Origin: a bacterium
GTDB lineage: Bacteria; Patescibacteriota; 4484-211; GCA-002791395
Assembly (NCBI GenBank): GCA_027002475.1
Contig: JALWZS010000021.1
Location: forward strand, 205-64,204
Reading direction: 5' to 3'
DNA: 64,000 nucleotides
Part shown: piece by piece, positions 8,093 to 63,745 of the stretch
Layout of the letters: every line of letters starts with the position of its first letter
How positions within the stretch are numbered: the first letter of the stretch is position 1
Notes under the pieces: generated by a model
Database searches by the model: none
Told to the model about the DNA's origin: nothing
Seen by the model: only the letters and a program-made list of their open reading frames with translations
Program-made: the position numbers and the translations under genes

Positions 8093-8920
8093 ATGAAGTA
8101 TAATAAAAACATGCTGCCCAAGGTTTTATATATAACCTCTCGAGTTCTTGCGATTTTGATTGGTGTAGTGGTCTTTGCATTCATCACTGAAGGATTTGGA
8201 TCGGTCACATTCACAATGAAATTAGCAGGGGCATTATTCACCCTATTAACGGCTGGAGGATTAATCTATTTCGCAATGCGCCAAAAGAATGATAGATGGC
8301 TCGCACTTCTTCCTGTCGCTTATTGGGTAGCTCTTCTTGTAATCTTTTTAATGGGAGGCTTTGTAAACGATATGAATTTTATTAGGTTCCTTTTTGTTTC
8401 ACTAGTTGCAAGTATCACAACCGCTTTAGCTTTTTACGCATGGAGAAGCAACCAACTAGGAGGCTCTATGTATGTTGCGCTAGGCGTAGTCTATATCTTT
8501 TTGGCATTTAAGCGCGTTGAGACACTTCCTTTAATCATTGTACTTACAATTTTGCTTGCTACTGGAGTTATGTTTTATCTAGGACCGAATAGGCTCAAAA
8601 AACAAATCCCAAATCCCAAGCAAGACAAACCCAACAAACAAGAAGGTGACGCAGAAACTCAAACTCTTAACCAACCTGATGAGAAAAGCCAAGAAACAAT
8701 ACAAGTAGCCCCGAAACAAGAGCCAACAAATGCACCTGTTAAACCAAAAACGCCACCTATTGAAAAAGAGCCTTCACCAATAATGCCGCCAAGTCCCCCC
8801 AAACCTAAAAAAGAGTATAATGACCTAAAAGCTGTAGACGAAGCACTACAAGGTTGGCAAAGTCTCGCACAAAAATCTGCTCCACAAAAAAGTCGAACCT
8901 TCAAAAACGTGAAAAAGTAG
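8093..8920 (+). CDS. polytopic membrane protein with Pro/Lys-rich C-terminal tail
   Basis: Five or six hydrophobic helices then a KPKTPPIEKEPSPIMPPSPPKPKKEY tail. Starts 1 nt after the serpin stop. Confidence 0.6.
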   Translation: MKYNKNMLPKVLYITSRVLAILIGVVVFAFITEGFGSVTFTMKLAGALFTLLTAGGLIYFAMRQKNDRWLALLPVAYWVALLVIFLMGGFVNDMNFIRFLFVSLVASITTALAFYAWRSNQLGGSMYVALGVVYIFLAFKRVETLPLIIVLTILLATGVMFYLGPNRLKKQIPNPKQDKPNKQEGDAETQTLNQPDEKSQETIQVAPKQEPTNAPVKPKTPPIEKEPSPIMPPSPPKPKKEYNDLKAVDEALQGWQSLAQKSAPQKSRTFKNVKK

Positions 8921-9185
8921 GGAGTTAGAGGGTTGGAGAGTTGTAGAGTTTAAGAGTTGACGTGAGAACGTCATTGCGAGCGTTAGCGTGGCAATCTCAG
9001 TGGAAAGGTTTAAAATCGCGAGGAGGAAATCGGAGATTTACGACGTGGCGATCCATTGCCCTGAGATTACTTCAGTCGCTTCACTCCTTCGTAATGACAA
9101 GCTCGTCACTGCGAGGAACATAGTGACGCGGCAGTCTCAGTTAGAAAGTTACAGAGTTGGAGTGTATGAGAGTTGTAGAGTTAGC
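8921..9185. repeat. composite intergenic repeat, copy R1 (heptad AGAGTTn arms plus GC-rich palindromic core)
   Basis: Contains gtcattgcgagcg, aatcgcgaggaggaaatcggagattt, cgtcactgcgagg, gtgacgcggcagtctcagttagaaagttacagagttggag. Its reverse complement is about 90% identical to copy R3. Confidence 0.8.
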
Positions 9186-9330
9186 GTATCCACCCCAAAA
9201 CGGGCGATGGTACTAACAAACATTCCGCTTGTGAACTACTCCTTACTTATTTCAAAAGAAACTAAAAGTAAGTAAAGAGTAGCTCGCAAAACACAATCTC
9301 ACTCACAACCACACTCACAGGAGAAACCCC

Positions 9331-9465
9331 ATGGAAGTTCGTAAATTACTAAAAGCAGCCCAAGCAATCGTAGACATTCTCACCGTTGTCACGCTCAAGC
9401 CGGTGATTGATCGCCCCAACAAGAAAAAGAAAAAAGAGACTGTAAAACCAGCCCATATCTCATAG
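9331..9465 (+). CDS. small Lys-rich protein (44 aa), not in supplied ORF track
   Basis: AGGAGA RBS 6 nt upstream of the ATG. MEVRKLLKAAQAIVDILTVVTLKPVIDRPNKKKKKETVKPAHIS. Followed by an intrinsic terminator at 9496-9514. Confidence 0.3.
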   Translation: MEVRKLLKAAQAIVDILTVVTLKPVIDRPNKKKKKETVKPAHIS

Positions 9466-9495
9466 CTGGTGAAGTCCCCGGGCAAAAAATAGTTC

Positions 9496-9514
9496 GGGGG
9501 CTTGCCCCTTTTTT
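9496..9514 (+). terminator. Rho-independent terminator
   Basis: GGGG-CTTG-CCCC hairpin followed by TTTTTT. Confidence 0.5.
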
Positions 9515-9627
9515 AACAAATGACAAAAAACAAATTCTATACTCCAAACAAAACACTAAAGTTTAGGGGGTAGGTGAATTTATCTGTTTGTTACGTTTAG
9601 TGCTTGGTATTTGTGATTTGACACTTT

Positions 9628-9922
9628 TTCAACTCTCCATCTCTTTAACTTTCTGAGACTGCCGCGCTCGTTTCTCGCTCGCAGCGACAGAGTAAAGTCC
9701 CTTTACAGTACGAATATGTCATTACGAGGAGGAAATCGGAGATTTTCAACGTGGTAATCTCAACCATACGTAGACGCTTCACAGCTACGATTGCGTCATT
9801 ACGAAGGAGCGAAACGACTGAAGTAATCTAAGGAAAGCAGATCGCCACGTCGAAAATCTCCGATTTCCTCCTCGCGATGACCTTCAAACTCTCTAACTCT
9901 CCAACCCTTTAACTCTCTAACC
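9628..9922. repeat. composite intergenic repeat, copy R2, with internal MITE-like inverted arms
   Basis: Left arm gtcattacgaggaggaaatcggagattttcaacgtggtaatctc (9717-9760) and right arm gatcgccacgtcgaaaatctccgatttcctcctcgcgatgac (9830-9871) are inverted. Flanked by aactctc heptads. Confidence 0.8.
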
Positions 9923-11002
9923 ATTAATCATAAACTCGACTACGTCCCCTTCTTGCATCTCGTAATCCTTACCCTCAAATCTAACCTTGCCTGCATCCAT
10001 AACTCCCTTCCAGCCTTTTAGACCAATAAAATCCTCGAAATTTGCAATTTTGGCTTTCACAAAACCTTTTTCAAAATCTGTATGAATTGCCCCAGCAGCT
10101 TGTGGGGCTAGCGTTCCCTTGAGAATAGGCCAAGCACGCACCTCTTTCTCCCCTGCTGTTAAAAATGTTATTAGCCCTAAAGTTTCGTATGTTTTTTTAA
10201 TTAAAATCTCAAGACCCGGTTTTTCTATTCCATAGGCGTTCAAGAGTTCGATGCGCTCATCACGAGTCATACCTGCCATATCGGCTTCAAGTTTGGCATT
10301 TAACGCAACGATAGATTGCTTCTCCCCGATATTCATCGGGGCTCGCAATGACGATTCAGAACCAAACAACTCATTAAGCTTTTCTTCATCTGTATTTAAA
10401 ACGATAATAATTGGTTTTAGTGTTAACAGTCCAAATGATTTTATTGCATGGGCTTCGTCTTTAGTTAAATCCGCCTCAGAAGCGTTTTTACCTTGTTCTA
10501 GTTTGGCTCGAATTTTATCGATCGCATCGTATCTAGCTTTTTCCTCATCTGATAGTTTTTTATTAGGACGATTTTGTTTTTCTAGTTGAGCAAGATCTGC
10601 TAACTGCAACTCCGTTAATAAAATTTGCATATCGTTTTCTGGATTTGTGCTTCCTGCTCGCACAATGTTGTCATTCTCAAAATCCCTAAGAACCATAATT
10701 ATTACATCGACTTCCCTAATGTGAGACAAAAATTTATTCCCAAGCCCTTCGCCTTTATGCGCCCCTTCAACAAGTCCCGCAATATCAACAAACTCAATTG
10801 CAGCAGGAATAATCTTTTGAGTATTTACAACCTTGGCAAGTTTTGGCAAACGCTCATCCGGAACCTCAACAACTCCAACATTTGGTTCAATCGTACAAAA
10901 GGGGTAATTTTGCGCATCGGCTACAGTGCGACTAAGAAGCGCATTAAAAAGCGTTGATTTTCCAACATTTGGTAACCCAACCAATCCTGCCTGCAAACTC
11001 AT
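9917..11002 (-). CDS. ychF: ribosome-binding ATPase YchF
   Basis: G1 motif GLVGLPNVGKSTLFNAL. YchF length and a C-terminal TGS domain. Confidence 0.9.
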   Translation of the reverse strand: MSLQAGLVGLPNVGKSTLFNALLSRTVADAQNYPFCTIEPNVGVVEVPDERLPKLAKVVNTQKIIPAAIEFVDIAGLVEGAHKGEGLGNKFLSHIREVDVIIMVLRDFENDNIVRAGSTNPENDMQILLTELQLADLAQLEKQNRPNKKLSDEEKARYDAIDKIRAKLEQGKNASEADLTKDEAHAIKSFGLLTLKPIIIVLNTDEEKLNELFGSESSLRAPMNIGEKQSIVALNAKLEADMAGMTRDERIELLNAYGIEKPGLEILIKKTYETLGLITFLTAGEKEVRAWPILKGTLAPQAAGAIHTDFEKGFVKAKIANFEDFIGLKGWKGVMDAGKVRFEGKDYEMQEGDVVEFMING

Positions 11003-14576: not shown

Positions 14577-14684
14577 GACTACAGTATTTTAACATATTAC
14601 ATGCAAGCCGCTTTTGGCGTTATAGCAATAAATAAAACCAACCCCCAGTATCACAGCGTATTACAAGGAAAAACAGCCCCACAC

Positions 14685-14900
14685 TTTAACTCTCCAACTC
14701 TGTAACTTTCTAACTGAGACTGCCGCGTCACTATATTCCTTACAGTGACGCGCTTGTCATTACGAAGGAGTGAAGCGACTGAAGTAATCTCTGAAAAGCA
14801 GATCGCCGCGCTCCGCTCGCGATAGACGCCAAACGTCAAACCACTATACTTGCTTTGCTCCATAACTCTCCAACTCGTAACTCTACAACTCTCCCCCCCC
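14685..14900. repeat. composite intergenic repeat, copy R3
   Basis: ctctccaactctgtaactttctaactgagactgccgcgtcactat...gtcattacgaaggagtgaagcgactgaagtaatct is the reverse complement of R1. It ends with aactctacaactctccccccc. Confidence 0.8.
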
Positions 14901-14915
14901 AACCCATCCCACCCC

Positions 14916-14944
14916 TTGACAAGTCCTATAGGGTTATGTATAAT
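14916..14944 (+). promoter_or_regulatory. consensus sigma70-type promoter (TTGACA-17-TATAAT)
   Basis: TTGACA at 14916-14921, a 17-nt spacer and TATAAT at 14939-14944. Both hexamers are perfect consensus. Confidence 0.6.
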
Positions 14945-14950
14945 ACGCAC

Positions 14951-15153
14951 ATACTTCAAGGCGAAAAGCTTAAAGTATGTAGTACATTATTTAACATCAG
15001 TAAACAGCTTTGGATCCCTACCCGAAGTAAAACACATAATACTCCGAAAGACTTATGGGACACCCAAAGCATCGGAGTTTTTTATTATCCGAAACAAGAG
15101 AGATGCTCCCGTATCTACCCTAAAGGTACAGGATAATCTCTCCTGTTTTTTGT
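14951..15153 (+). ncRNA. candidate small RNA (about 135-200 nt) of unknown class
   Basis: Transcribed from the consensus promoter. No plausible RBS-led ORF. An internal hairpin CTCCGA..TCGGAG with a T-tract (about 15043-15085) and a terminal hairpin-T-tract terminator. Confidence 0.4.
15128..15153 (+). terminator. Rho-independent terminator
   Basis: ACAGGA-taatctc-TCCTGT hairpin followed by TTTTTTGT. Confidence 0.55.
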
Positions 15154-15240
15154 CTTTAACACTACAAAAGACACTAAGACAGGTAGGGATGACGTGAGTT
15201 TGTTAAACAACGTCAGGGCACCTTTAACAAGTTAGTCTAT

Positions 15241-15306
15241 ATTCTCCGGAGCTTTAGCGATAAAGAGATGATTATATTCGCCGAAGCTTTAGCGAAGGAG
15301 AAAAGA
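15241..15306. repeat. two tandem 30-33 nt direct repeats
   Basis: ccggagctttagcgataaagag and ccgaagctttagcgaaggag, 33 nt apart. Confidence 0.5.
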
Positions 15307-15484
15307 CTAGAAGATACCGAAACGATCTATACCGTACTAGGATCTTTTGGCACTAACTCGTCTAAAGGAGATTTTGCTTAGCTGATCAGAGTCATGCAGT
15401 TTATGAAATAAACTGCCTAAGTTGATTTTGCTACGCAAAATCAACGTCAACGACCTTAACAATTCATTTCAACTTAAACATTAT

Positions 15485-15594
15485 GGGTCCGTAGCTCAAA
15501 AAAGCCAGCTTTATGTAGAGCTGGTTGGCATAGAGCCCCTTCTCGCCGAGGGGCCCCCTGCGGGGGGATGCAGGTTCGAATCCTGCCGGACCCA
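15485..15594 (+). tRNA. aberrant expanded tRNA-Lys-like gene (about 110 nt); anticodon unresolved, possibly CGC
   Basis: 5' GGGTCCGTAGCTCA and 3' GCAGGTTCGAATCCTGCCGGACCCACC form a perfect 7-bp acceptor stem and a canonical T-arm, closely resembling bacterial tRNA-Lys. The D-loop carries a roughly 24-nt insertion with its own hairpin (AAAG-CCAG-CTTT). A putative anticodon arm CCCTT-CTCGCCG-AGGGG lacks position 26. A long GC variable hairpin CCCCC-TGC-GGGGG. No encoded CCA. Confidence 0.45.
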
Positions 15595-15598
15595 CCCC

Positions 15599-15628
15599 AA
15601 AAAAAGCGCGCCTCGATATGAGGCGCGC
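15599..15628 (-). terminator. strong Rho-independent terminator on the minus strand
   Basis: 9-bp GC stem GCGCGCCTC-gatat-GAGGCGCGC, preceded on the plus strand by AAAAAAA (a T-tract on the minus strand). Confidence 0.6.
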
Positions 15629-16109
15629 CAAACCTTAAGTTAGGTCTTTTTGTGTGTCTAGGTATGTAGTAACTTTACTCCATGCCCAGGCCCACAAGAG
15701 GCCAACTTTTCTTTTTTTTCCTGGGGCGTCTGTGCCCCTCTCACCAAGGAGGTGAATTATACGCAGACACTTGTAGTACCGGTCACGTGACCAAACCTAC
15801 CTTCCGTCCGTCATCCTGAAAGCTTACACCGCAAGGTGCAGCCAGGACTTGCCACAATGGCAATCGGAGGAAGTAGCAAGGAGCGGTCAACGTGGTCGTG
15901 AACAACTGAATCGGCAGCCAGTAGCGGACGCTACTGCGACTAGCCGTGCAGGGAGGATACACCCAAAAGAACTTTGTATCCGAAACGCTGAGGGTGTCAG
16001 CGTGCCATAAGGCAAAACAACACCAAGTCCGCCGCTAGTGTGCGGGCGAAAGTCCTGGAAAATGATCCAGGCCGGCACCCATGCCGCCTCTTCGAATAGG
16101 AGGAATAAA

Positions 16110-16565
16110 ATGGGTAGTAATTTTAAGAGTAAAGTAGCAGAGACCATCAAATCCGCCAAAAATATTCAGATGGCAATTAAACTCCTGAAAGAGGCGTTTG
16201 ACGTAAAGGCTGTAGCGGTAAGCTCAGCCCCAGGCCCAATCCAGCGAGCCCCCCGAGATATCGGAGTTCTGGTACAAAGAGGGTTGAAGGACAATGTCCT
16301 TATCAACCTCTACCAGAATTTCCGAGGTGGTACCGGGATGATGGGGGATCGTATCGGACCGGTCCAGTATGAGCTCATAAATGACGGTGAGCTCCCTGGG
16401 GCCATATTTACTTTTGAGGACCAAGTTTACGTCAACCGCCCCCAACTATGGTTTGTTGCCATGGCTTCGGAAGCACTGAATGAGTTCGTGCTAAATCAAA
16501 CCGAAGCCAATGAGCATCTCTTCAAAGTTGCTCGCGGCAAGAAACCTTACTCGAAACTCTACTAA
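16110..16565 (+). CDS. hypothetical protein (151 aa) inside the GC-rich non-coding island
   Basis: Perfect AGGAGG RBS 7 nt upstream of the ATG at 16110. The ORF is continuous. No recognised domain. Confidence 0.5.
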   Translation: MGSNFKSKVAETIKSAKNIQMAIKLLKEAFDVKAVAVSSAPGPIQRAPRDIGVLVQRGLKDNVLINLYQNFRGGTGMMGDRIGPVQYELINDGELPGAIFTFEDQVYVNRPQLWFVAMASEALNEFVLNQTEANEHLFKVARGKKPYSKLY

Positions 16566-17139: not shown

Positions 17140-17400
<261 letters not shown>

Positions 17401-17804
17401 CGAACTTATATGGGCGATAAGACCTTGATATCTCAACAGATATCATTGCTTCCACCAAATAGAAATCCGACCAACGCTTGGCCACAGGCGGCATTAACTC
17501 GATAGAGCTAATGCCGCCTTATTCTTACTAATGCTCCCCGCTGTGGGTTGAGTAGGGATCGCGTGTAATACATTAGACGCGACAACCCACAGCGAGTAGT
17601 GCGAGTAAGTGGCTCAAATTACAAACCATACAAACAGAACAAACCTTGCAAACAAATTACAAGCAATAAATTACAAACTTCAAACAGTCTGCAACCAAAT
17701 CTGCCCAAAGCCTAAACTATTCTATTTTGTTTAAAATTTGCAATTTGTGATTTAAAGTTTGTTTGTTATGTTTGGGATTTGGAATTTGAAGCTTGATATC
17801 CCCC

Positions 17805-18075
17805 TAACTCACTTGAGATTGCGCCGCATACTCCGTATGCTTACAGAAGAAACTGACGTTTCTTCACCGTACCCTAACCGTCACTGCGAAAGAGCAAACG
17901 CGATTGCGGCAGTCTCTACTTGTAGATTGCTTCTCCTGCCGCGGCGGGTTCGCGATGACGTTTTCACACCAACACTCAGACCCTCCAACTCTTTAACTCT
18001 TCAACTCTCCAACTTGAGATTGCTTCACCCGATATACATCGGGTTCGCAATGACGTTTGCACGTCAACTCATGAG
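17805..18075. repeat. composite intergenic repeat, copy R4
   Basis: cgtcactgcgaaagagcaaacgcgattgcggcagtct, ggttcgcgatgacg and ccaactctttaactcttcaactctccaac. cttgagattgc occurs twice. Confidence 0.75.
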
Positions 18076-18086
18076 ATAATAATGTC

Positions 18087-22060: not shown

Positions 22061-22182
22061 TGTTAGTTGAAGAGTTAAAGAGTTATAGAGTTTGAGTGTT
22101 GAAGCGTTTGAATGTCATTGCGAGGAGGAAATCGAAGATTTTCGACGAAGCAATCCCAGATTGGAGAGTTGGAGAGTTGTAC
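22061..22182. repeat. composite intergenic repeat, copy R5
   Basis: Heptad run gttagttgaagagttaaagagttatagagtttgagtgttgaag, core gtcattgcgaggaggaaatcgaagattttcgacgaagcaatccc, and ggagagttggagagttgtac. Confidence 0.75.
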
Positions 22183-22196
22183 TATATAATTAAACG

Positions 22197-23840
22197 ATGG
22201 AAAACATTCATCCATCTCTTCGTATCCGCAAAGGAGTTGCTATTGTTCTTGGAATCATACTTTTAGAAGCTATCTTTATTTACGTCCTTACTATACACAG
22301 AAACAATACTCCCACCCAGCAGCCAATTAATATCCCAATTATTAGCTCAACAATACACGTCAACAAAAACTCGATAGAAAATACAAGCATGCCGATAGCA
22401 ACGCGAGAAAAAATCACAAACGCAGTTAGCCAGATTCAAGATGCAAAGTTGGATTTAGGAGATGACATAACGTTAAATAACAACGGCAAAGGAACACTTG
22501 TTCAATCATACGTCTATGTCCCAGTTGTACGGTTTGGTTCACTAATCGAGGAAACTAATCTAGATGAAATCAAAGACACGTACATAAACGGAAGCAGCAA
22601 TAAATTTAGTAAAGTCTATATCCTTAACGATGCAAAGGCACTTAACACAATACTAAACACCACTAACACTAAAGCAATTACAGTCGCCTCCGTTGACACA
22701 CTAATTAGCAAAATGAGTAAATCTGATCTAGCGATAGTCCCATTTGAAGAACTAACCCCCAAACTAAGTACATTAAAGATAGGTAAGCTTTCTGTATTAA
22801 ACAAGGAGCTAAGCAACGATAAATGGCCGTTAACGCTAAAAGTCTACATAGACGGCAAAAAGGGACAACTTCTTGTCGATGTACTAGGTGATAGTTTGGT
22901 TGATAACAGAATCCCACAAAACATGGGTACTTTAATTATGACAGGTGTTACTGCAATAAGCCGCGGGGTCGAGTATGCAATAGAGCGTCACAATGACCCA
23001 ATATATCCAGCTCGAGGCGTAATGGACGTACTTTCCAAAGCGGACTTAACTCATGTAAACAGCGAGAATCCATTATTCGATGGGTGCATACCTGCAGAAC
23101 ACGGCGTAGTTCTTTGTGGTAAAACCCGCTCAATTGCGAACTTTAAAGCAATTGGTGTTGATATCGTAGGCCTAACAGGTAACCACCGAAATGATTATGG
23201 TCCCAAAAAAAACCTTGAATCGATTGGTCACTTAGAAGAATTAGGACTTGAGTATTATGGCGGCGGTAAAAACGAAAAAGATGCCGCGAAGATTTTATAC
23301 AAAAAGATTGATGATATTACACTAGCATTTGTTGGTTATGCGTACTTTGATTCTTTGAACGGTCCTAGCTACCGATCTTTAGCATATGGAGACCGACCAG
23401 GTGCCAATTACTATAGTGAGAAAAAAGTTAAAAGAGATATTGAAACCGCTCGTAAAAAGGCCGACTTTGTGATTGTTGAATATCAGTTTATTGAAAACTA
23501 TTCATACGACCCGATTCCTGGTCAAATTGAGGTATTCCAACAAACCATTGATTATGGAGCAGATCTTGTTATGGGGGTTCAGTCGCACCAACCACAATGG
23601 ATTAGGTTTAGAAAGTCTCCAGATGGGCACGAAGGAACAATATTTTATGGACTTGGAAACTTCTTTTTTGACCAAATGTGGTCACTTGGTACAAGGCAAG
23701 GAATAATTCCAGAGTTTGTCTTTTACAACGGGAAGCTTATTTCAATGGATATTATGACCACCCTACTTTACGATTACGCACAACCCCGATTTGTAACAGG
23801 ACAAGACCGAGAAGCGATATTAAAGGAAGTGCTCCCTTAG
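22197..23840 (+). CDS. CapA/PgsA-like metallophosphatase family protein (poly-gamma-glutamate synthesis accessory) with N-terminal TM extension
   Basis: CapA-like region GVTAISRGVEYAIERHNDPIYPARGVMDVLSKADLTHVNSENP. N-terminal TM helix. 547 aa. Confidence 0.65.
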   Translation: MENIHPSLRIRKGVAIVLGIILLEAIFIYVLTIHRNNTPTQQPINIPIISSTIHVNKNSIENTSMPIATREKITNAVSQIQDAKLDLGDDITLNNNGKGTLVQSYVYVPVVRFGSLIEETNLDEIKDTYINGSSNKFSKVYILNDAKALNTILNTTNTKAITVASVDTLISKMSKSDLAIVPFEELTPKLSTLKIGKLSVLNKELSNDKWPLTLKVYIDGKKGQLLVDVLGDSLVDNRIPQNMGTLIMTGVTAISRGVEYAIERHNDPIYPARGVMDVLSKADLTHVNSENPLFDGCIPAEHGVVLCGKTRSIANFKAIGVDIVGLTGNHRNDYGPKKNLESIGHLEELGLEYYGGGKNEKDAAKILYKKIDDITLAFVGYAYFDSLNGPSYRSLAYGDRPGANYYSEKKVKRDIETARKKADFVIVEYQFIENYSYDPIPGQIEVFQQTIDYGADLVMGVQSHQPQWIRFRKSPDGHEGTIFYGLGNFFFDQMWSLGTRQGIIPEFVFYNGKLISMDIMTTLLYDYAQPRFVTGQDREAILKEVLP

Positions 23841-28504: not shown

Positions 28505-28715
28505 CTGACTAGTCATCGCGAGGAGTAAAGCAATCTCTACCGCCAGTAGATTGCCACACTACGCTCGCAATGACAACTCACCCGTCACTGCGAAGGAGCA
28601 AAGCGACTGCGGCAGTCTGACGTAGCGTCATTGCGAGGAGTAAGCTTACAGCTTGCGACGCGGCAATCTCTATGAACAGACTGCCACAGTCGCTTTGCCC
28701 CCTCGCGGTGACGGT
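28505..28715. repeat. composite intergenic repeat, copy R6
   Basis: gtcatcgcgaggag, cgctcgcaatgac, cgtcactgcgaaggagcaaagcgactgcggcagtctg and cgtcattgcgaggag. A palindromic arrangement. Confidence 0.75.
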
Positions 28716-42738: not shown

Positions 42739-45312
42739 TTACTTATTTGGGGATTTAGAATTAACCCATAAAACGCCACCAACAGAAAGCAACATTGCAC
42801 TAACAATTAAGCTGTATAGAGCGTTTGTTGCAGCAGTATCAGGGAGTTCGGTAGCCGCACCCAATACATCTCCCTTACCCATAGGAGCTTCTGTGGGTGT
42901 ATTTGTTGGAGTGTTGGTTGGAGTTGGAGTAGTTTTAATATCGCTCTCACCTAACACATCGCCGGTTTCTTCCGTAGGGGTTGGTGTAGTAGTTGGAGTA
43001 GGCGTATTCGTTGGGGTTGGGGTATCTGTCGGAGTGGGTGTTGGCGTATTAGTTGGCGTTGGAGTAGGTGTATCGGTTGGAGTTGGTTCCTGAGGAGTTG
43101 GGGTTGGAGTATCTGTTGGAGTAGGTTGAACTCTCGCAAATGTTGGTGTAGGGGTATTAGTTGGTGTTGGTGTGTTAGTAGGACTTGGACTTACGGTGGT
43201 AGTAGGAGATGGCTGTATTCTAGCGAATGTTGGAGTTGGTGTATTTGTTGGCATATATGTTGGTGTAGGAGTATTTGTGGGACTTGGCGTATCTGTTGGT
43301 GTTGGAGTTAAGACAGTCCTGTCCAAGGTAACTTCACACCAATCGCCCCAATCACTCGCGTTCCCAGCAGCGTCAACTGCACGAACTCGGTACTTGTAAA
43401 GTCCGTCTAAGTCTCTAATCATTCCTGTTTTCTCAGATATAGTTGGATGATCGATTATGTTACCTTCACGAATCATGTAGTCGTAGTGATCAAAGTCCGC
43501 TTCAGTGTTATCGTCCCAATCAACGGTTATCAACCGATTATCGGTTATACCACCACATCTAAGGTCGTTACCCTCATGGTCGAGGATATGAATTCCGGTA
43601 GGCGCACTTGGTGCAATGTCATAAGTTATAGAACACACATTACTCCACTCTGACACGAATTCGTTAGCATCTATTGTACGGTCTCCATCTGCATCTTTCC
43701 ACGCCCTAACCCTTGAGTAGTAAATCCCTTCGTGCCCTGTACCTCCACCAAAAGTCCGATAGTTAGTGTAAGGATTATCGTATATTTCGCTACCTCTCCA
43801 GCTTCCGTTACCGACTTTATACTGACGCTCATACCTAATGTTTGGATCTCCTAAAGCGACATCCGTCCAGTGGACTGATATCCCGTTAACACTAGTAGAG
43901 CCTCCAGTACAAGCAATTTCATTTGGAAACCTAGGAGTAGCGTAATTATCGCCATCGTTTTGGTTGTAACCAGTTTGCTCCGGCGTAGCAGGCGGCATTC
44001 CTATTGTTAGGTTAACTCTACTCCTCCAGCGTAAGTTGCCAGCCTTATCTGCAAATCTCACAACCATCTTGTACACACCATCAGGTAGATTGTTTGTTCC
44101 ATCATTAACTGGCAGGCTCCATGTCTCTGAAGCTTCATCATAAGTTGCCCAAAACGTTGCAACAAGACTATTGTCGCTCATTTTCCTAAACCTAACTCTT
44201 ATAGAGTCTATGCCAGAAAGCGCGTCACCTGCCGTACCTGTTACATCGAATGGTCCTGAGAGAAATGCACCGCTATCAGGATATGTGATTGTGGCAAAAG
44301 GCTTCGTGCTGTCATAAGTGATCTTGCAACTATCATCAAAGGTCTTGTCTCCGCCAAGTGCCCAAGCAGATTTGTTACCATTTACATCTACCGCTCTAAC
44401 GGCAAATCCGTAAGTACCTTCGTGAGGTAGCCAGCTACCATTGTATTCAAATATGGAGTCATAAAATACTCGTTCATCAATACCAATCCGACCGTTTGGC
44501 GCATCAAACGATGTGTATTCGTAGTGGTCAAAGTCGTATTCTGTATTGTCATCCCAATCAGGATGCATTCTTTGGATTGGTGAGTAAGCTCCGCATTCGT
44601 AAACTTTACTATGATCGTCACCTTGCAGTCTTCTTAAACCAGTAGGCATCGCAGGGGGAGTATTATCCTCTATGTGTGGAATGTTAAGATTAAAGGCGTG
44701 ACGATGCTTCTTTACTAACCTCACCTGCCAACAACTAGATGCTTCATCTGCCATTCCAGACCTATTCTCAACAACAGATGCCTTTGGGTGCTGTATCACA
44801 CGTCCCAACGGACCAACTGGTTTTGTGCCAACTGGAGGCATATTAAGCTCGTAGGCTAAGTCAGTGCGAACACCACATACATAATAAGTGTTACCCCATG
44901 CAAGGTTGCCAAAGTAGAAGAAACCACGTGGGAGAGTTCCACTTGTTTGCTCGCGCAAGTTCACAAAATTCCCGTTACCGTCATCCACATACAACCTAAC
45001 ACCCCAACCATTCTTAAGCGGAGACCTACCGTCTGCTATAGTAAGCAAACCATCGTCATTAGCATCTAGAAATGTAAATCCTGTAATACTTCCATTGTGA
45101 ATCGTTTTCTTAAGCGTAATCGCTTCTACGGTTTGCGAATTAGACCCAAATACAAAATATGCACCTACGGTAAGTATCGTAAAGACCAGAACGGTTAAAA
45201 ATTTATTTAATTTCGATTTGGGTTGATACATAAGCTCTAGTCCTATAGAACGAGTGCATATTAACACTATAACTACAATTTTGTCAAATGGATACATCAA
45301 AAGAGTATTCAA
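42739..45312 (-). CDS. large cell-surface protein with Fn3/Ig-like repeats, long Pro/Thr repeat stalk and C-terminal LPDTA-hydrophobic-basic sorting-like signal
   Basis: N-terminal TM or signal. Duplicated WDDNTE(Y/A)DFDHY(E/D)Y modules. About 150 aa of [16 protein letters not shown] repeats. C-terminus [35 protein letters not shown]. Confidence 0.7.
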
Positions 45313-55896: not shown

Positions 55897-57114
55897 TTAG
55901 TCTTGGTAGTTTACGGTCTTAGTTGAACCATCCCCCATCTTAAACGTAATAGTAAAATATGCACCATACATACTGGCATTAAACCTAATCTTGTTTAGAT
56001 TCTCCCAACTTGTAGAAGGATAGTAGTCACTGATATCAACATAATCACCGGAGTTAGCACGACCACTCCATCTCGTGCTTCCATCAATCTTAATACGCCT
56101 CATCTGTCTATTTGACTTAGACCATGTCACCATCATCTCATCGACGTAAATACTAGCACTCCCATCGGTACTTCGAAGTTCAATCCCCTTTAGTTCTTTT
56201 CCTGACCAGCCACCTACATATGCACCACTTGTATCAACATCCAGACAACTTGCCTGCGGATTGCAAGCGCTTGGCGTTGGGGTCGGGGTTGGCGTATCTG
56301 TTGGAGTTGGTGTGTTGGTTGGAGTTGGCGTGTTTGTAGGAGTAGCAGTTGGTCCGACCGTTGGAGTTGGAGTATTTGTAGGGGTGGGAGTATTGGTTGG
56401 TGTTGGTGTGTTAGTTGGAACAGGTGTATTGGTTGGTGTTAGTGTTGGAGTTGGTGTATTTGACGGAGTTGGTGTTGGACCAGTCGTTGGAGTTGGTGTT
56501 GGTTCGATCGTTGGAGTAGGCGTTGGTGAACTGCCAGGCGTAGCAGTCGGCGCGGAGTAACTACAGCTAACCACATTACACGAACACGATGATTCACTGA
56601 AATCAGTGTTTGTGACATTGCCAAATTGGTCTAGCGACACACTAGTTTGTCCAACCCCCTCGTAACAAAGGTTAAAGGTGAACGGGAAACTACTAATGTT
56701 AGTCACCTGCCCCGTTGGGACTTTAAAGTCAAAATTTGATTCGGTCGAAACAATACAGATCGGGCAAGAAATTATTTCTGTATCCAGTGACGGGGCAATA
56801 GCATTATCACTTTCATCGACTTGAGATATCTGGTAGCCTCTATATACTCCACTAGGATCATCAGCATACCGAAGCAGTGAAAAGCGATACTCTTGAACAA
56901 AAGTTCCATCATTTTGAACACCAGACGTCGCGTATTTATGAGTTAATCTCATGTCTGCAACAACGTCTCTAGTAGCCGAAGTTAGTTCTCTTCTGTGATT
57001 GAATTTCATCATCTGAGGGACCAAGAAAACCATCAACATAGCACTCAATCCAGCAACTATTAGCAGTTCAATTAGAGTAAATCCTTTTACTAAGCCCCGT
57101 CGTGTCTTTAGCAT
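55897..57114 (-). CDS. prepilin-type N-terminal cleavage/methylation domain protein (large type IV pilin-like, 405 aa) with Pro/Thr-rich region
   Basis: [25 protein letters not shown] class III signal. [50 protein letters not shown] stalk. C-terminal beta-rich domain. Confidence 0.7.
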
Positions 57115-62276: not shown

Positions 62277-63560
62277 CTAATCAAGAGTTAACATTTCCAA
62301 AACAGGCAGCTCCTTCCCTGCTAAAAAGCCTAGAGTTGCCCCACCAGCCAAACTTGCATGTGTAAACGAAGATATATCAACTACTTGTTTTGCTACAGCA
62401 ATTGTATCGCCACCACCAATAACGGTAGTTGCATCACTTTGAGCCATCGCTTTTGCTATCGCATAAGACCCACTTGCAAAGCGCTCATCTTCAAACTTCC
62501 CCATTGGACCATTCCAGAAAACGGTTTTAGAATGATAAATCAGCCTTGCAAACATCTCTTCTGTCTCTGGTCCAATATCTAAAGCCATCCAGCCCTCTGG
62601 CACAACATCATTAACCCGATAAGAACGTACTACTTTAACCTCAGAATTAGCGCTCAAACTATTACTAATACGCAAATCGATAGGATGTTGGACAGTATGC
62701 AAAGAGTAATCAGCACCAATACCGTAAAGTCTTTCCAGCTCACGGTTTTTATTTTCTCTCATTGTTTGTATTGTTCTTGCTAGCTCTACCCAATCTTTTT
62801 TCTCGCCTCGTTTTTCATCAACATACACATCTTCCATAAATGAATCCCCCATGTTTTTACCCTCTGCTTTCATAAATACATTTGCCACACCACCACCAAC
62901 CAAAAACATATCCGCTTTATCCATTAAGTTTTGAACCGCTTCAACTTTATCTGATATCTTTGCCCCGCCGATAATTACCGTAAACGGATGCTCTGGAGAT
63001 TCAATTAAACCGTTTAGCGTACGGACCTCACTTTCAAAATAGAGACCTGCATAACTTGGTAAATGTCGTAAGATGCCAGTAGTTGAAGCGTGAATACGAT
63101 GTGCTTGTGGGAAACCATCAAACACAACGACTTCGCCATTTTCCGCTAGCTCTTTAGCAAAAGCATCGTCATCCTTTTTATCTTCAGGATGAAACCTTGT
63201 ATTTTCAAGCATTACAAGCTCGCCCGGTTTCATTTTAGAGATGTAACCTCGAACTTCTGTGCCAACACAGTCATCAAGTTTTGGCACAGGTCTTAAGATT
63301 AACTCCGACAATCGCTTGGCATGAGGAGCAGTCGTTAGATTTTCGTTTACGACTCCATCTGGTCTACCAACGTAGGTAATAATTACAATTTTGGCATTTT
63401 GCTCAAGAAGGTATGTAAGAGTTGGGATTGTCGCTTCTATACGAGAATCATCGACTAAAACGCGCTCCCCGTTAACCATTTCTGTGGCAATATCGTATGG
63501 TGAACGATACAAAACGGTTTTATTTGTAAAATCGAAGTCGCGAATAGTTCTAAGTTTCAC
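62277..63560 (-). CDS. pgk: phosphoglycerate kinase (with internal insertion)
   Basis: LRTIRDFDF..VLYRSPYD, IIGGAKISDKVEAVQNLMDKADMFLVGGGVANVF and PEGWMALDIGPET. A probable GTG start at 63560. The longer ORF's N-terminal 50 codons overlap repeat copy R7 and lack homology. Confidence 0.85.
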   Translation of the reverse strand: MKLRTIRDFDFTNKTVLYRSPYDIATEMVNGERVLVDDSRIEATIPTLTYLLEQNAKIVIITYVGRPDGVVNENLTTAPHAKRLSELILRPVPKLDDCVGTEVRGYISKMKPGELVMLENTRFHPEDKKDDDAFAKELAENGEVVVFDGFPQAHRIHASTTGILRHLPSYAGLYFESEVRTLNGLIESPEHPFTVIIGGAKISDKVEAVQNLMDKADMFLVGGGVANVFMKAEGKNMGDSFMEDVYVDEKRGEKKDWVELARTIQTMRENKNRELERLYGIGADYSLHTVQHPIDLRISNSLSANSEVKVVRSYRVNDVVPEGWMALDIGPETEEMFARLIYHSKTVFWNGPMGKFEDERFASGSYAIAKAMAQSDATTVIGGGDTIAVAKQVVDISSFTHASLAGGATLGFLAGKELPVLEMLTLD

Positions 63561-63609
63561 AATGAAATGATAGCAGGGAGTCGAGTATGAGTAAACACGG
63601 TCTACATTC

Positions 63610-63705
63610 TCGTCACCGCGAGTGCTTGCAAAGCAAGTACGTGGCGATCTTTTATCAATGAGATTGCCACAGAATTTATGCAATAAATTCCTCGCAATGA
63701 CATGT
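63610..63705. repeat. composite intergenic repeat, degenerate copy R7
   Basis: cgtcaccgcgagtgcttgcaaagcaagtacgtggcgatc ... ctcgcaatgacatg. Confidence 0.55.
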
Positions 63706-63745
63706 GGCACACTGGTTGTAATAACCTAAACAACAGCTACTCAGA

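Follow-up and report, generated by a model that had tools for sequence, protein, structure and literature searches.

The 64-kb stretch of Patescibacteria DNA analyzed here (hereafter the window, with a G+C content of ~40%) carries a family of short dispersed repeats, which an earlier note on this DNA had described as a composite element with heptad arms around GC-rich palindromic cores. These repeats are probably clusters of a hairpin motif of single-stranded DNA (ssDNA) that belongs to the CGTC-tagged superfamily of repetitive extragenic palindromes (REPs), which includes the Neisseria Transformation Sequence (NTS) and the Ssn-related motifs (SRM). This placement follows from the spread of the repeat unit and from its bracketing of genes that encode SsnA-like GIY-YIG nucleases. 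The unit, which reads GTCATTGCGAG...GCAATCTC, would be a subclass of SRM that is overlooked by the published SRM search string. It is a previously undescribed structural variant of the CGTC-REP/SRM repeats, found in a phylum for which none had been described earlier.

The closest named relatives of two window proteins, namely YchF (9917-11002, minus strand) and a CapA-family protein (22197-23840), are from candidate division WWE3 and other Patescibacteria. In addition, part of the window is identical to the metagenome scaffold JOHN19-1. The relatives used for comparison were GCA_054010915.1 (loci L122 and L365) and a 97%-identical relative (L367).

Repeat Layers and Unit Anatomy

The repeats are real and lie far above chance expectation. 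There are 12 occurrences of GTCAYYRCGARG, the 5' half of the core, in comparison with 0.02 expected, and 11 of RGAGTTNNRGAGTT, which represents two successive octamers, in comparison with 0.04 expected. Related repeats are present at all seven loci listed in the earlier note, as borne out by this enrichment and by a self-comparison in which further matching pairs connect all of these loci. The composite element resolves into two layers. The first layer consists of 24 hairpin units of 27-46 nt, which are arranged in inverted dimers and clusters at eight loci. Seven of these are the clusters R1 (8919-9182), R2 (9630-9926), R3, R4, R5, R6 (28505-28715), and R7 (63610-63705); the eighth, which the list in the earlier note had missed, is a single unit within ychF (10311-10353, minus strand). 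The sequence modules named in the earlier note are indeed repeated, but each of them corresponds to one or two copies of one hairpin unit rather than to a separate component.

The second layer consists of tandem arrays of the octamer NNAGAGTT, in which five of the clusters (R1 to R5) are embedded. TRF reported a period of 8 at every array (8932, 9887, 14687, 17986, 22065, and 22161), such that the supposed heptads are octamers, and R6, R7, and the ychF copy have none. The arrays on the two sides of a cluster share one orientation and are not inverted arms, and the cluster therefore interrupts a single array. This holds for each of the five array loci in the window. The region 8921-9922 is not one element and comprises two clusters (R1 and R2) around a small gene (9332-9466) with its own terminator.

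With the exception of the ychF copy, all units (23 of 24) are intergenic, and the two strands carry near-equal numbers (11 plus and 13 minus). The unit coordinates give seven head-to-head (HH, tags outside), five tail-to-tail (TT, tags inside), and four head-to-tail (HT, tandem) dimers. The clusters R1 and R2 are located directly 3' of stop codons, and R3, R5, R6, and R7 are located upstream of genes. The family was aptly called REP-like, given these short tagged hairpins that are mostly intergenic, occur in both orientations, and form inverted dimers.

In each unit, an unpaired YGTC tag at the 5' end precedes a 5-bp basal stem, which carries a purine internal loop and then a distal hairpin that is variable; a C-TC tail completes the unit. 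The tag is CGTC in 15 units, TGTC in six, GGTC or AGTC in two, and absent in one; one of the tagged units has an extra base after the tag (CGTCT). The variants of the basal stem are ATTGC/GCAAT, ATTAC/GTAAT, ACTGC/GCAGT, and ATCGC/GCGAT, with an A-T pair at position 1 in most units and T-A or C-G at position 2. The internal loop reads GA(G/A) in its 5' strand and GAA, GTG, or GCG in its 3' strand, and the sequence of the distal hairpin is free between units. A C directly 3' of the stem is present in all 24 units, usually as CTC. The window units retain both critical features of SRM, which are the tag and the C after the stem. DNA folding gives the expected hairpin shape for most units, and the dimer at 9717-9882 can also fold as one long hairpin (-42 kcal/mol, z = -7.1). 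The GA/GAA internal loop was also considered by eye as a k-turn or loop-E, but this was dropped because the strand lengths are not suitable.

The pairing of the stem is supported by covariation, which was measured on halves located without requiring complementarity. Within the window, the p-values are 0.0013 for position 2, 0.00026 for position 4, and 0.058 for the remaining variable stem position, all inflated by copies that are related through duplication. For these three positions, the 240 units taken from other phyla gave p-values of 3e-14, 7e-16, and 6e-4. Stem mismatches have no clear strand preference overall, including across phyla.

Distribution and Association With GIY-YIG Genes

An exact-pattern scan (GTCATTGCGAG, 6-36 nt of any sequence, and GCAATCTC) found at least 120 loci in a set of species-representative genomes and at least 120 loci in viral contigs. 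The genome matches listed come from about 20 phylum-level groups, and 250 units among these matches have the same tag, stem, loop, and tail, with Y before GTC in 90% and a CTC tail in 80%. The dimers in the genome loci are mostly HH (65), followed by HT (16) and TT (12). The units are dispersed, unlike the local duplication that had been named as a possible refutation, and are present in related as well as unrelated genomes. Rfam has no family that matches the hairpins in the window or at 16 other loci, and literature searches with the sequence strings gave no relevant match.

Clustering of neighboring proteins at 120 and then 240 repeat-bearing loci recovered only ABC ATPases, response regulators, and phage core genes. 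No Y1 or other transposase was enriched among the neighbors of the 240 loci. An apparent enrichment of UvrA was an artifact of generic similarity among ABC ATPases.

In an Oscillospiraceae genome and a Planctomycetota genome, the paired units of a dimer enclose a small GIY-YIG gene, and such genes are likewise found with this unit class in Omnitrophota and Falkowbacteria genomes. The genes at loci L033, L035, L070, and L081 are bracketed by the units or abut them. When GIY-YIG homologs were picked blind to the repeats, all seven had units within ~60 nt of the start or stop. Flanking of an ssn-type gene by this repeat class was seen at L033, L035, L070, L369/L373, L379/L381, L397, and L401, all of which are in other genomes. 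The hosts in which ATTGCGAG units bracket GIY-YIG genes of ~95 aa include Oscillospiraceae, Planctomycetota, Falkowbacteria, Marinimicrobia, and others. In cultured hosts, the GIY-YIG gene is flanked by the CGTC repeat of that host; for A. lipoferum and N. aromaticivorans, the flanking repeats are the only copies within 50 kb. The GIY-YIG proteins have 44% identity to the N. gonorrhoeae SsnA ortholog (E = 3e-26). NCBIfam has no model for these small proteins.

The association between GIY-YIG genes and hairpin repeats was already published in 2025 (Chenal 2025, PMC11893778). In that work, the Neisseria SsnA and its homologs bind the NTS/SRM hairpins as ssDNA only, and the cut is located a few bases upstream of the tag, as tested in Neisseria and Wolbachia. 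Cleavage depends on the three bases that precede the palindrome and binding on the C that follows it, and the NTS-ssnA-NTS arrangement resembles an insertion sequence (PMC11893778).

An ssn gene with inverted units on its two sides may be the autonomous form, and the inverted dimers that lack open reading frames (ORFs) would be derivatives of this unit-ssn-unit form. In the WWE3 lineage, the units have piled up as clusters with alternating orientation at gene ends and promoters, preferentially inside the lineage-specific NNAGAGTT octamer arrays, with fast turnover as single units, inner modules, and array-plus-unit blocks. An Ssn protein may also act on the copies in this organism, and the repeats may influence ssDNA uptake or recombination.

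Several other arrangements of ssn-type genes were observed. These genes and their flanking repeats are found between genes of the conserved operons or neighborhoods uvrB/uvrA, sufB/sufC, and gltA/lpxB, at loci L401 (a metagenome contig, 10001-10288), L403 (A. lipoferum), and L405 (S. meliloti), as would be expected from the insertion of a small mobile cassette. On the Planktothrix agardhii plasmid NZ_LR882964 (L411), three SRM-like units GTCATCCTGAGTGAAACGAAGGATC are located at 15456, 17094, and 17178 inside an MmeI restriction-modification gene, and an ssn-type GIY-YIG gene lies between the annotated MmeI gene and the DISARM gene drmA. The ssn-type GIY-YIG gene of Falkowbacteria (L070, 2728-2870) is split by a palindromic insert of another kind (~130 nt) and is still bracketed by two hairpin units.

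Turnover Among Close Relatives

The repeat content differs between the window and its relatives at several orthologous sites. The array downstream of ychF is an uninterrupted run of six octamers in L122, whereas in the window it contains a 235-nt cluster of four units. Upstream of the thioredoxin gene, the orthologous units of the window and L122 differ by a 16-nt inner hairpin module. At the R5 site, L367 has GAGTTGGAGAGTTGGAGAGTT alone and the window is 95 nt longer, with five additional octamers and one unit; an unrelated 230-nt palindromic element is present at this site in L365. Two R6 units and one R4 unit are also absent in L365. The ychF unit is common to the window and a 92%-identical relative, and is absent from eleven other aligned YchF proteins (mostly WWE3). 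Given these differences in units, inner modules, and a 95-nt block, together with an uninterrupted array, the family is dynamic, with whole units, inner modules, and array-plus-unit blocks gained or lost between close relatives. The target-site duplications that had been proposed as a check were found at none of the three filled/empty junction comparisons (R2, R4, and R5).

The two layers have different distributions. Among the 120 listed metagenome loci with the octamer pattern, none has a hairpin unit within 400 nt of the array and none added a further relative, and the other copies of the hairpin unit in the candidate phyla radiation (CPR) have no octamers. The octamer arrays are not part of the wider hairpin family, and the array habit is lineage-specific.

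Comparison With Known Repeat Systems

The units resemble SRM/NTS in having HGTC 5' of the hairpin and C immediately 3' of it, in being a directional motif of 20-50 nt, in bracketing a single-domain GIY-YIG gene of ~95 aa, and in forming clusters around genes. Unlike SRM/NTS, the window units have a stem with a purine internal loop in it and a distal hairpin of variable sequence. Moreover, the host belongs to Patescibacteria, a group that is not mentioned in PMC11893778, and that paper describes no embedding in octamer arrays.

The CGTC-tagged REPs were defined as repeats with a CGTC or TGTC tag, an A-T start of the stem, and a short tail, which form HH dimers, have intragenic copies, and lack a transposase (Di Nocera 2013, PMC3733652). 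The units examined here likewise have a CGTC or TGTC tag, an A-T stem start, a short unpaired tail, and mostly HH dimers, as well as in-frame intragenic copies, no linked transposase, and a distribution across several phyla. The published groups CGTC-1 to -4 have contiguous stems of 8-9 bp, loops of 4-5 nt, and a CCA tail, with "clusters rare" (Di Nocera, De Gregorio, Rocco, PMC3733652), whereas here the units end in a CTC tail and the majority of copies are clustered. Patescibacteria, Chloroflexota, Planctomycetota, and Bacillota are outside of the five phyla named in that paper, in which the Rickettsia palindromic elements (RPEs) RPE-4 and RPE-6 were equated with CGTC repeats (PMC3733652).

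Similar to RPEs, a palindromic repeat adds a short in-frame peptide to a conserved housekeeping protein, in this case YchF. Unlike RPEs, this involves one 42-nt unit in a single gene; RPE-1 elements are longer than the ychF unit. The small dispersed repeats (SDRs) of Nostocaceae are reportedly very small structured repeats nested in tandem heptamer arrays, as described by Elhai et al. in 2008. The array embedding and nesting of these SDRs would resemble the octamer embedding and the inner-module indel seen here, but the sequences and hosts differ. The idea that the window is from a heterocystous cyanobacterium and that its repeats are Nostoc SDRs or short tandemly repeated repetitive (STRR) elements was dropped, as the YchF and CapA homologs point to WWE3.

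Alternative Explanations

Short tagged hairpins in inverted dimers that are mostly intergenic, together with a cognate gene that has its own repeats on both sides, are also characteristic of classical REPs/REPINs mobilized by REP-associated tyrosine transposases (RAYTs), which are IS200/IS605-type enzymes. This origin, for which the earlier note had suggested a search for a RAYT partner, is very improbable. The tag is YGTC rather than GTAG, and the protein bracketed elsewhere by the units is a small GIY-YIG (Ssn-type) nuclease rather than an HUH tyrosine transposase. Furthermore, no transposase is enriched among the neighbors at the 240 repeat-bearing loci, the consistent neighbor is a GIY-YIG gene, and no RAYT gene flanked by CGTC repeats was found by Di Nocera 2013 (PMC3733652). 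Hardly more credible are ordinary miniature inverted-repeat transposable elements (MITEs), which would be internally deleted copies of DDE-transposase insertion sequences with terminal inverted repeats and target-site duplications, and for which the octamer arms would be the ends. The 95-nt composite block that is missing from the 97%-identical relative could be read in this manner, as could a multi-unit block of 122 nt that was copied at 89% identity (9044-9165 and 14689-14810); the latter agrees with the earlier estimate that R1 is ~90% identical to reverse-complemented R3. However, the arrays are direct on both sides, one array (in L122) is uninterrupted and has no unit, and the three junction comparisons gave no target-site duplication. 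The clusters also vary in unit content and order, octamers are absent from R6, R7, and the ychF copy, and the long terminal inverted repeats of a transposase-bearing parent, which a MITE in the usual sense would have, are not present.

The locations of R1 and R2 directly after stop codons and of R3, R5, R6, and R7 in 5' regions would fit hairpins that are mainly RNA elements, such as 3'-end stabilizers, terminators, or regulatory stem-loops under selection in transcripts, and RNA roles were proposed for many REPs (Di Nocera 2013, PMC3733652). This explanation is unlikely given the near-equal use of both strands, the lack of a clear wobble bias toward one strand across phyla, the absence of an Rfam match and of a U-tract after the hairpins, and the binding of the motif by Neisseria SsnA as ssDNA rather than RNA (PMC11893778). 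Nonetheless, the hairpins may have an RNA side-effect on neighboring genes. A similarly low probability is given to the possibility that the octamer arrays are the functional part, as binding sites of a regulatory, nucleoid, or replication protein, with the hairpins as passengers. Relatives keep the arrays at orthologous positions, whether hairpins are present or not, and the arrays are located at gene boundaries. Yet their length and sequence drift freely between relatives, every array locus in the window is interrupted by hairpins, the listed metagenome arrays have no hairpin nearby, and no protein partner is known. The iteron-like role that had been suggested is not supported either, as the period is 8 and nothing ties the arrays to replication.

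Several observations weigh against the assignment to the CGTC-tagged REP/SRM superfamily. The published SRM string HGTCWYN(0-2)YYVSBRHN(0-5)WNVSBRGN(0-2)RNCYNB matches none of the 24 window units, whereas canonical NTS and the A. lipoferum units do match it. In comparison with CGTC-1 to -4, the architecture also differs, with a 5-bp stem, an internal loop, and a variable distal hairpin within 27-46 nt. The nearest-neighbor folding energy is unremarkable for units with GA-rich loops. No ssn/GIY-YIG homolog was found by tblastn in the 64-kb window or in the WWE3 relative loci L122, L365, L366, and L124, which cover a small part of any genome. The octamer arrays are left unexplained by this model, and the differences between filled and empty sites could equally be deletions via recombination between octamers.

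Locations of Units and Arrays

The R1 array begins at the stop codon of a 275-aa gene (8093-8920). Its left part has five copies of NNAGAGTT (8919-8958, plus strand), detected by TRF with a period of 8 and as a regex run. These are followed by the units CGTCATTGCGAGCGTTAGCGTGGCAATCTCA (8969-8999, plus), AAAATCGCGAGGAGGAAATCGGAGATTT...GGCGATCCAT (9012-9056, plus), which is the unit without a GTC tag, TGTCATTACGAAGGAGTGAAGCGACTGAAGTAATCTCA (9062-9099, minus), and CGTCACTGCGAGGAACATAGTGACGCGGCAGTCTCA (9104-9139, plus), and then by the right part with five octamers oriented as in the left part (9143-9182, plus). The small conserved ORF between R1 and R2 (9332-9466, plus) encodes 44 aa (MEVRKLLKAAQAIVDILTVV...) and has a ribosome-binding site; the hairpin-plus-T-run terminator at ~9470-9513 belongs to this ORF, and a homologous small ORF is present in L122.

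The inner part of the R2 array has about three degenerate octamers (9630-9654, minus). The R2 units are TGTCGCTGCGAGCGAGAAACGAGCGCGGCAGTCTCA (9654-9689, minus), a unit with an inner GGAAATCGGAGATTTTC module (9717-9762, plus), CGTCATTACGAAGGAGCGAAACGACTGAAGTAATCTAA (9794-9831, plus), and GGTCATCGCGAGGAGGAAATCGGAGATTTTCGACGTGGCGATCTGC (9837-9882, minus). The second is the outer partner of a tags-outside dimer with the fourth, and the internal inverted arms reported in the earlier note were confirmed here (9718-9760 and 9839-9881, 43 nt, 88% identity). Five octamers (9887-9926, minus; TRF) overlap the stop codon of ychF, and it is the orthologous array in L122 that is uninterrupted. The unit in ychF (10311-10353, minus) is in frame and adds 14 codons, SSLRAPMNIGEKQS.

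In R3, three octamers (14688-14711, minus; TRF) and about four octamers (14863-14895, minus; TRF) form the left and right parts of the array. The units between them are CGTCACTGTAAGGAATATAGTGACGCGGCAGTCTC (14716-14750, minus), which has a degenerate 5' half, TGTCATTACGAAGGAGTGAAGCGACTGAAGTAATCTCT (14755-14792, plus), and CGTCTATCGCGAGCGGAGCGCGGCGATCTGCT (14797-14828, minus), for which the ortholog in L122 has the extra inner module. Cluster R4 contains a degenerate relic unit CGTCAGTTTC...GCGCAATCTC (17815-17858, minus), the units CGTCACTGCGAAAGAGCAAACGCGATTGCGGCAGTCTCT (17879-17917, plus) and CGTCATCGCGAACCCGCCGCGGCAGGAGAAGCAATCTAC (17922-17960, minus), an array of about five octamers (17970-18013, minus; TRF), and the unit CGTCATTGCGAACCCGATGTATATCGGGTGAAGCAATCTCA (18015-18055, minus), which is absent at this position in L365. 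In R5, about five octamers (22063-22108, plus; TRF) and the unit TGTCATTGCGAGGAGGAAATCGAAGATTTTCGACGAAGCAATCCCA (22113-22158, plus) are both absent from L367, and the remaining 2.5 octamers (22159-22181, plus; TRF) are the sole part of R5 present in that relative.

Cluster R6 has the units AGTCATCGCGAGGAGTAAAGCAATCTCT (28511-28538, plus), TGTCATTGCGAGCGTAGTGTGGCAATCTAC (28546-28575, minus), CGTCACTGCGAAGGAGCAAAGCGACTGCGGCAGTCTGA (28583-28620, plus), CGTCATTGCGAGGAGTAAGCTTACAGCTTGCGACGCGGCAATCTCT (28626-28671, plus), and CGTCACCGCGAGGGGGCAAAGCGACTGTGGCAGTCTGT (28676-28713, minus), of which the second and the third are those absent in L365. Cluster R7 is a tags-outside dimer (left half 63611-63652, plus; right half 63659-63702, minus) upstream of a phosphoglycerate-kinase-like gene. 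The suggestion that the repeats produce look-alike spurious ORFs is plausible for 14651-14959 (minus), 17759-18079 (plus), and the N-terminal extension VPHVIARN... of 62277-63710.

Other Features of the Window

A second type of repeat consists of long palindromes that are imperfect, of which one arm is rich in CAAAC and the other in GTTTG (fold -25 kcal/mol, z -2.3). These palindromes are located at 17612-17798 and ~9520-9627 in the window, at 11170-11290 in L122, and at ~9730-9960 in L365, where the copy takes the site of cluster R5.

A tRNA-like sequence at 15485-15594 (plus; Rfam tRNA, 37.6 bits) is not called by ARAGORN. Its acceptor stem and T arm are intact, its D region carries an insert of 33 nt, and its anticodon region is enlarged. 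The sequence is kept in the relative genome (L122 1801-1910, minus). The stretches ~15090-16115 and 17525-17652 are G+C-rich (47-51%), have no long ORF, and share 91-97% identity with the relative genome, in comparison with 80-88% for the flanking genes. Near the G+C-rich stretch, a 98-nt segment (17201-17298) matches the Rfam bacterial large subunit (LSU) rRNA at 72 bits. The G+C-rich stretch and the LSU rRNA match suggest the presence of at least one unannotated structured RNA gene.

Two large minus-strand ORFs contain coding repeats with an 18-nt period (42890-43310 and 56270-56530), which are GTTGGAGTTGGTGTATT-like on the plus strand. These probably encode low-complexity linkers rich in Thr and Pro.

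Implications

Streamlined CPR genomes are generally regarded as poor in repetitive DNA, and the ultra-small episymbiotic CPR bacteria are thought to depend on competence-type DNA uptake. The density of 24 structured repeats in 64 kb, with one inside a housekeeping GTPase gene, indicates a repeat system that thrives in a streamlined CPR genome. A broader and more tentative possibility, which we consider rather doubtful as a whole, is that the ATTGCGAG hairpin is a distinct Ssn-associated class in many phyla and viral contigs that escapes the SRM searches used at present. The 400-470 bp unit-ssn-unit forms would then be among the smallest autonomous mobile elements, with hundreds of copies in episymbiotic CPR bacteria. 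Under this possibility, the octamer arrays could be landing pads or footprints, and the system may shape which incoming or replicating ssDNA survives.

For genome annotation, the units are a source of spurious ORFs and of N-terminal extensions that are false, and assemblies break at them. The embedding in octamer arrays and the turnover at the level of units provide concrete filled and empty sites, which may be used to study the insertion mechanism of CGTC-type repeats. Taken together, these findings suggest that the Ssn/SRM system is wider than the published search motif captures.

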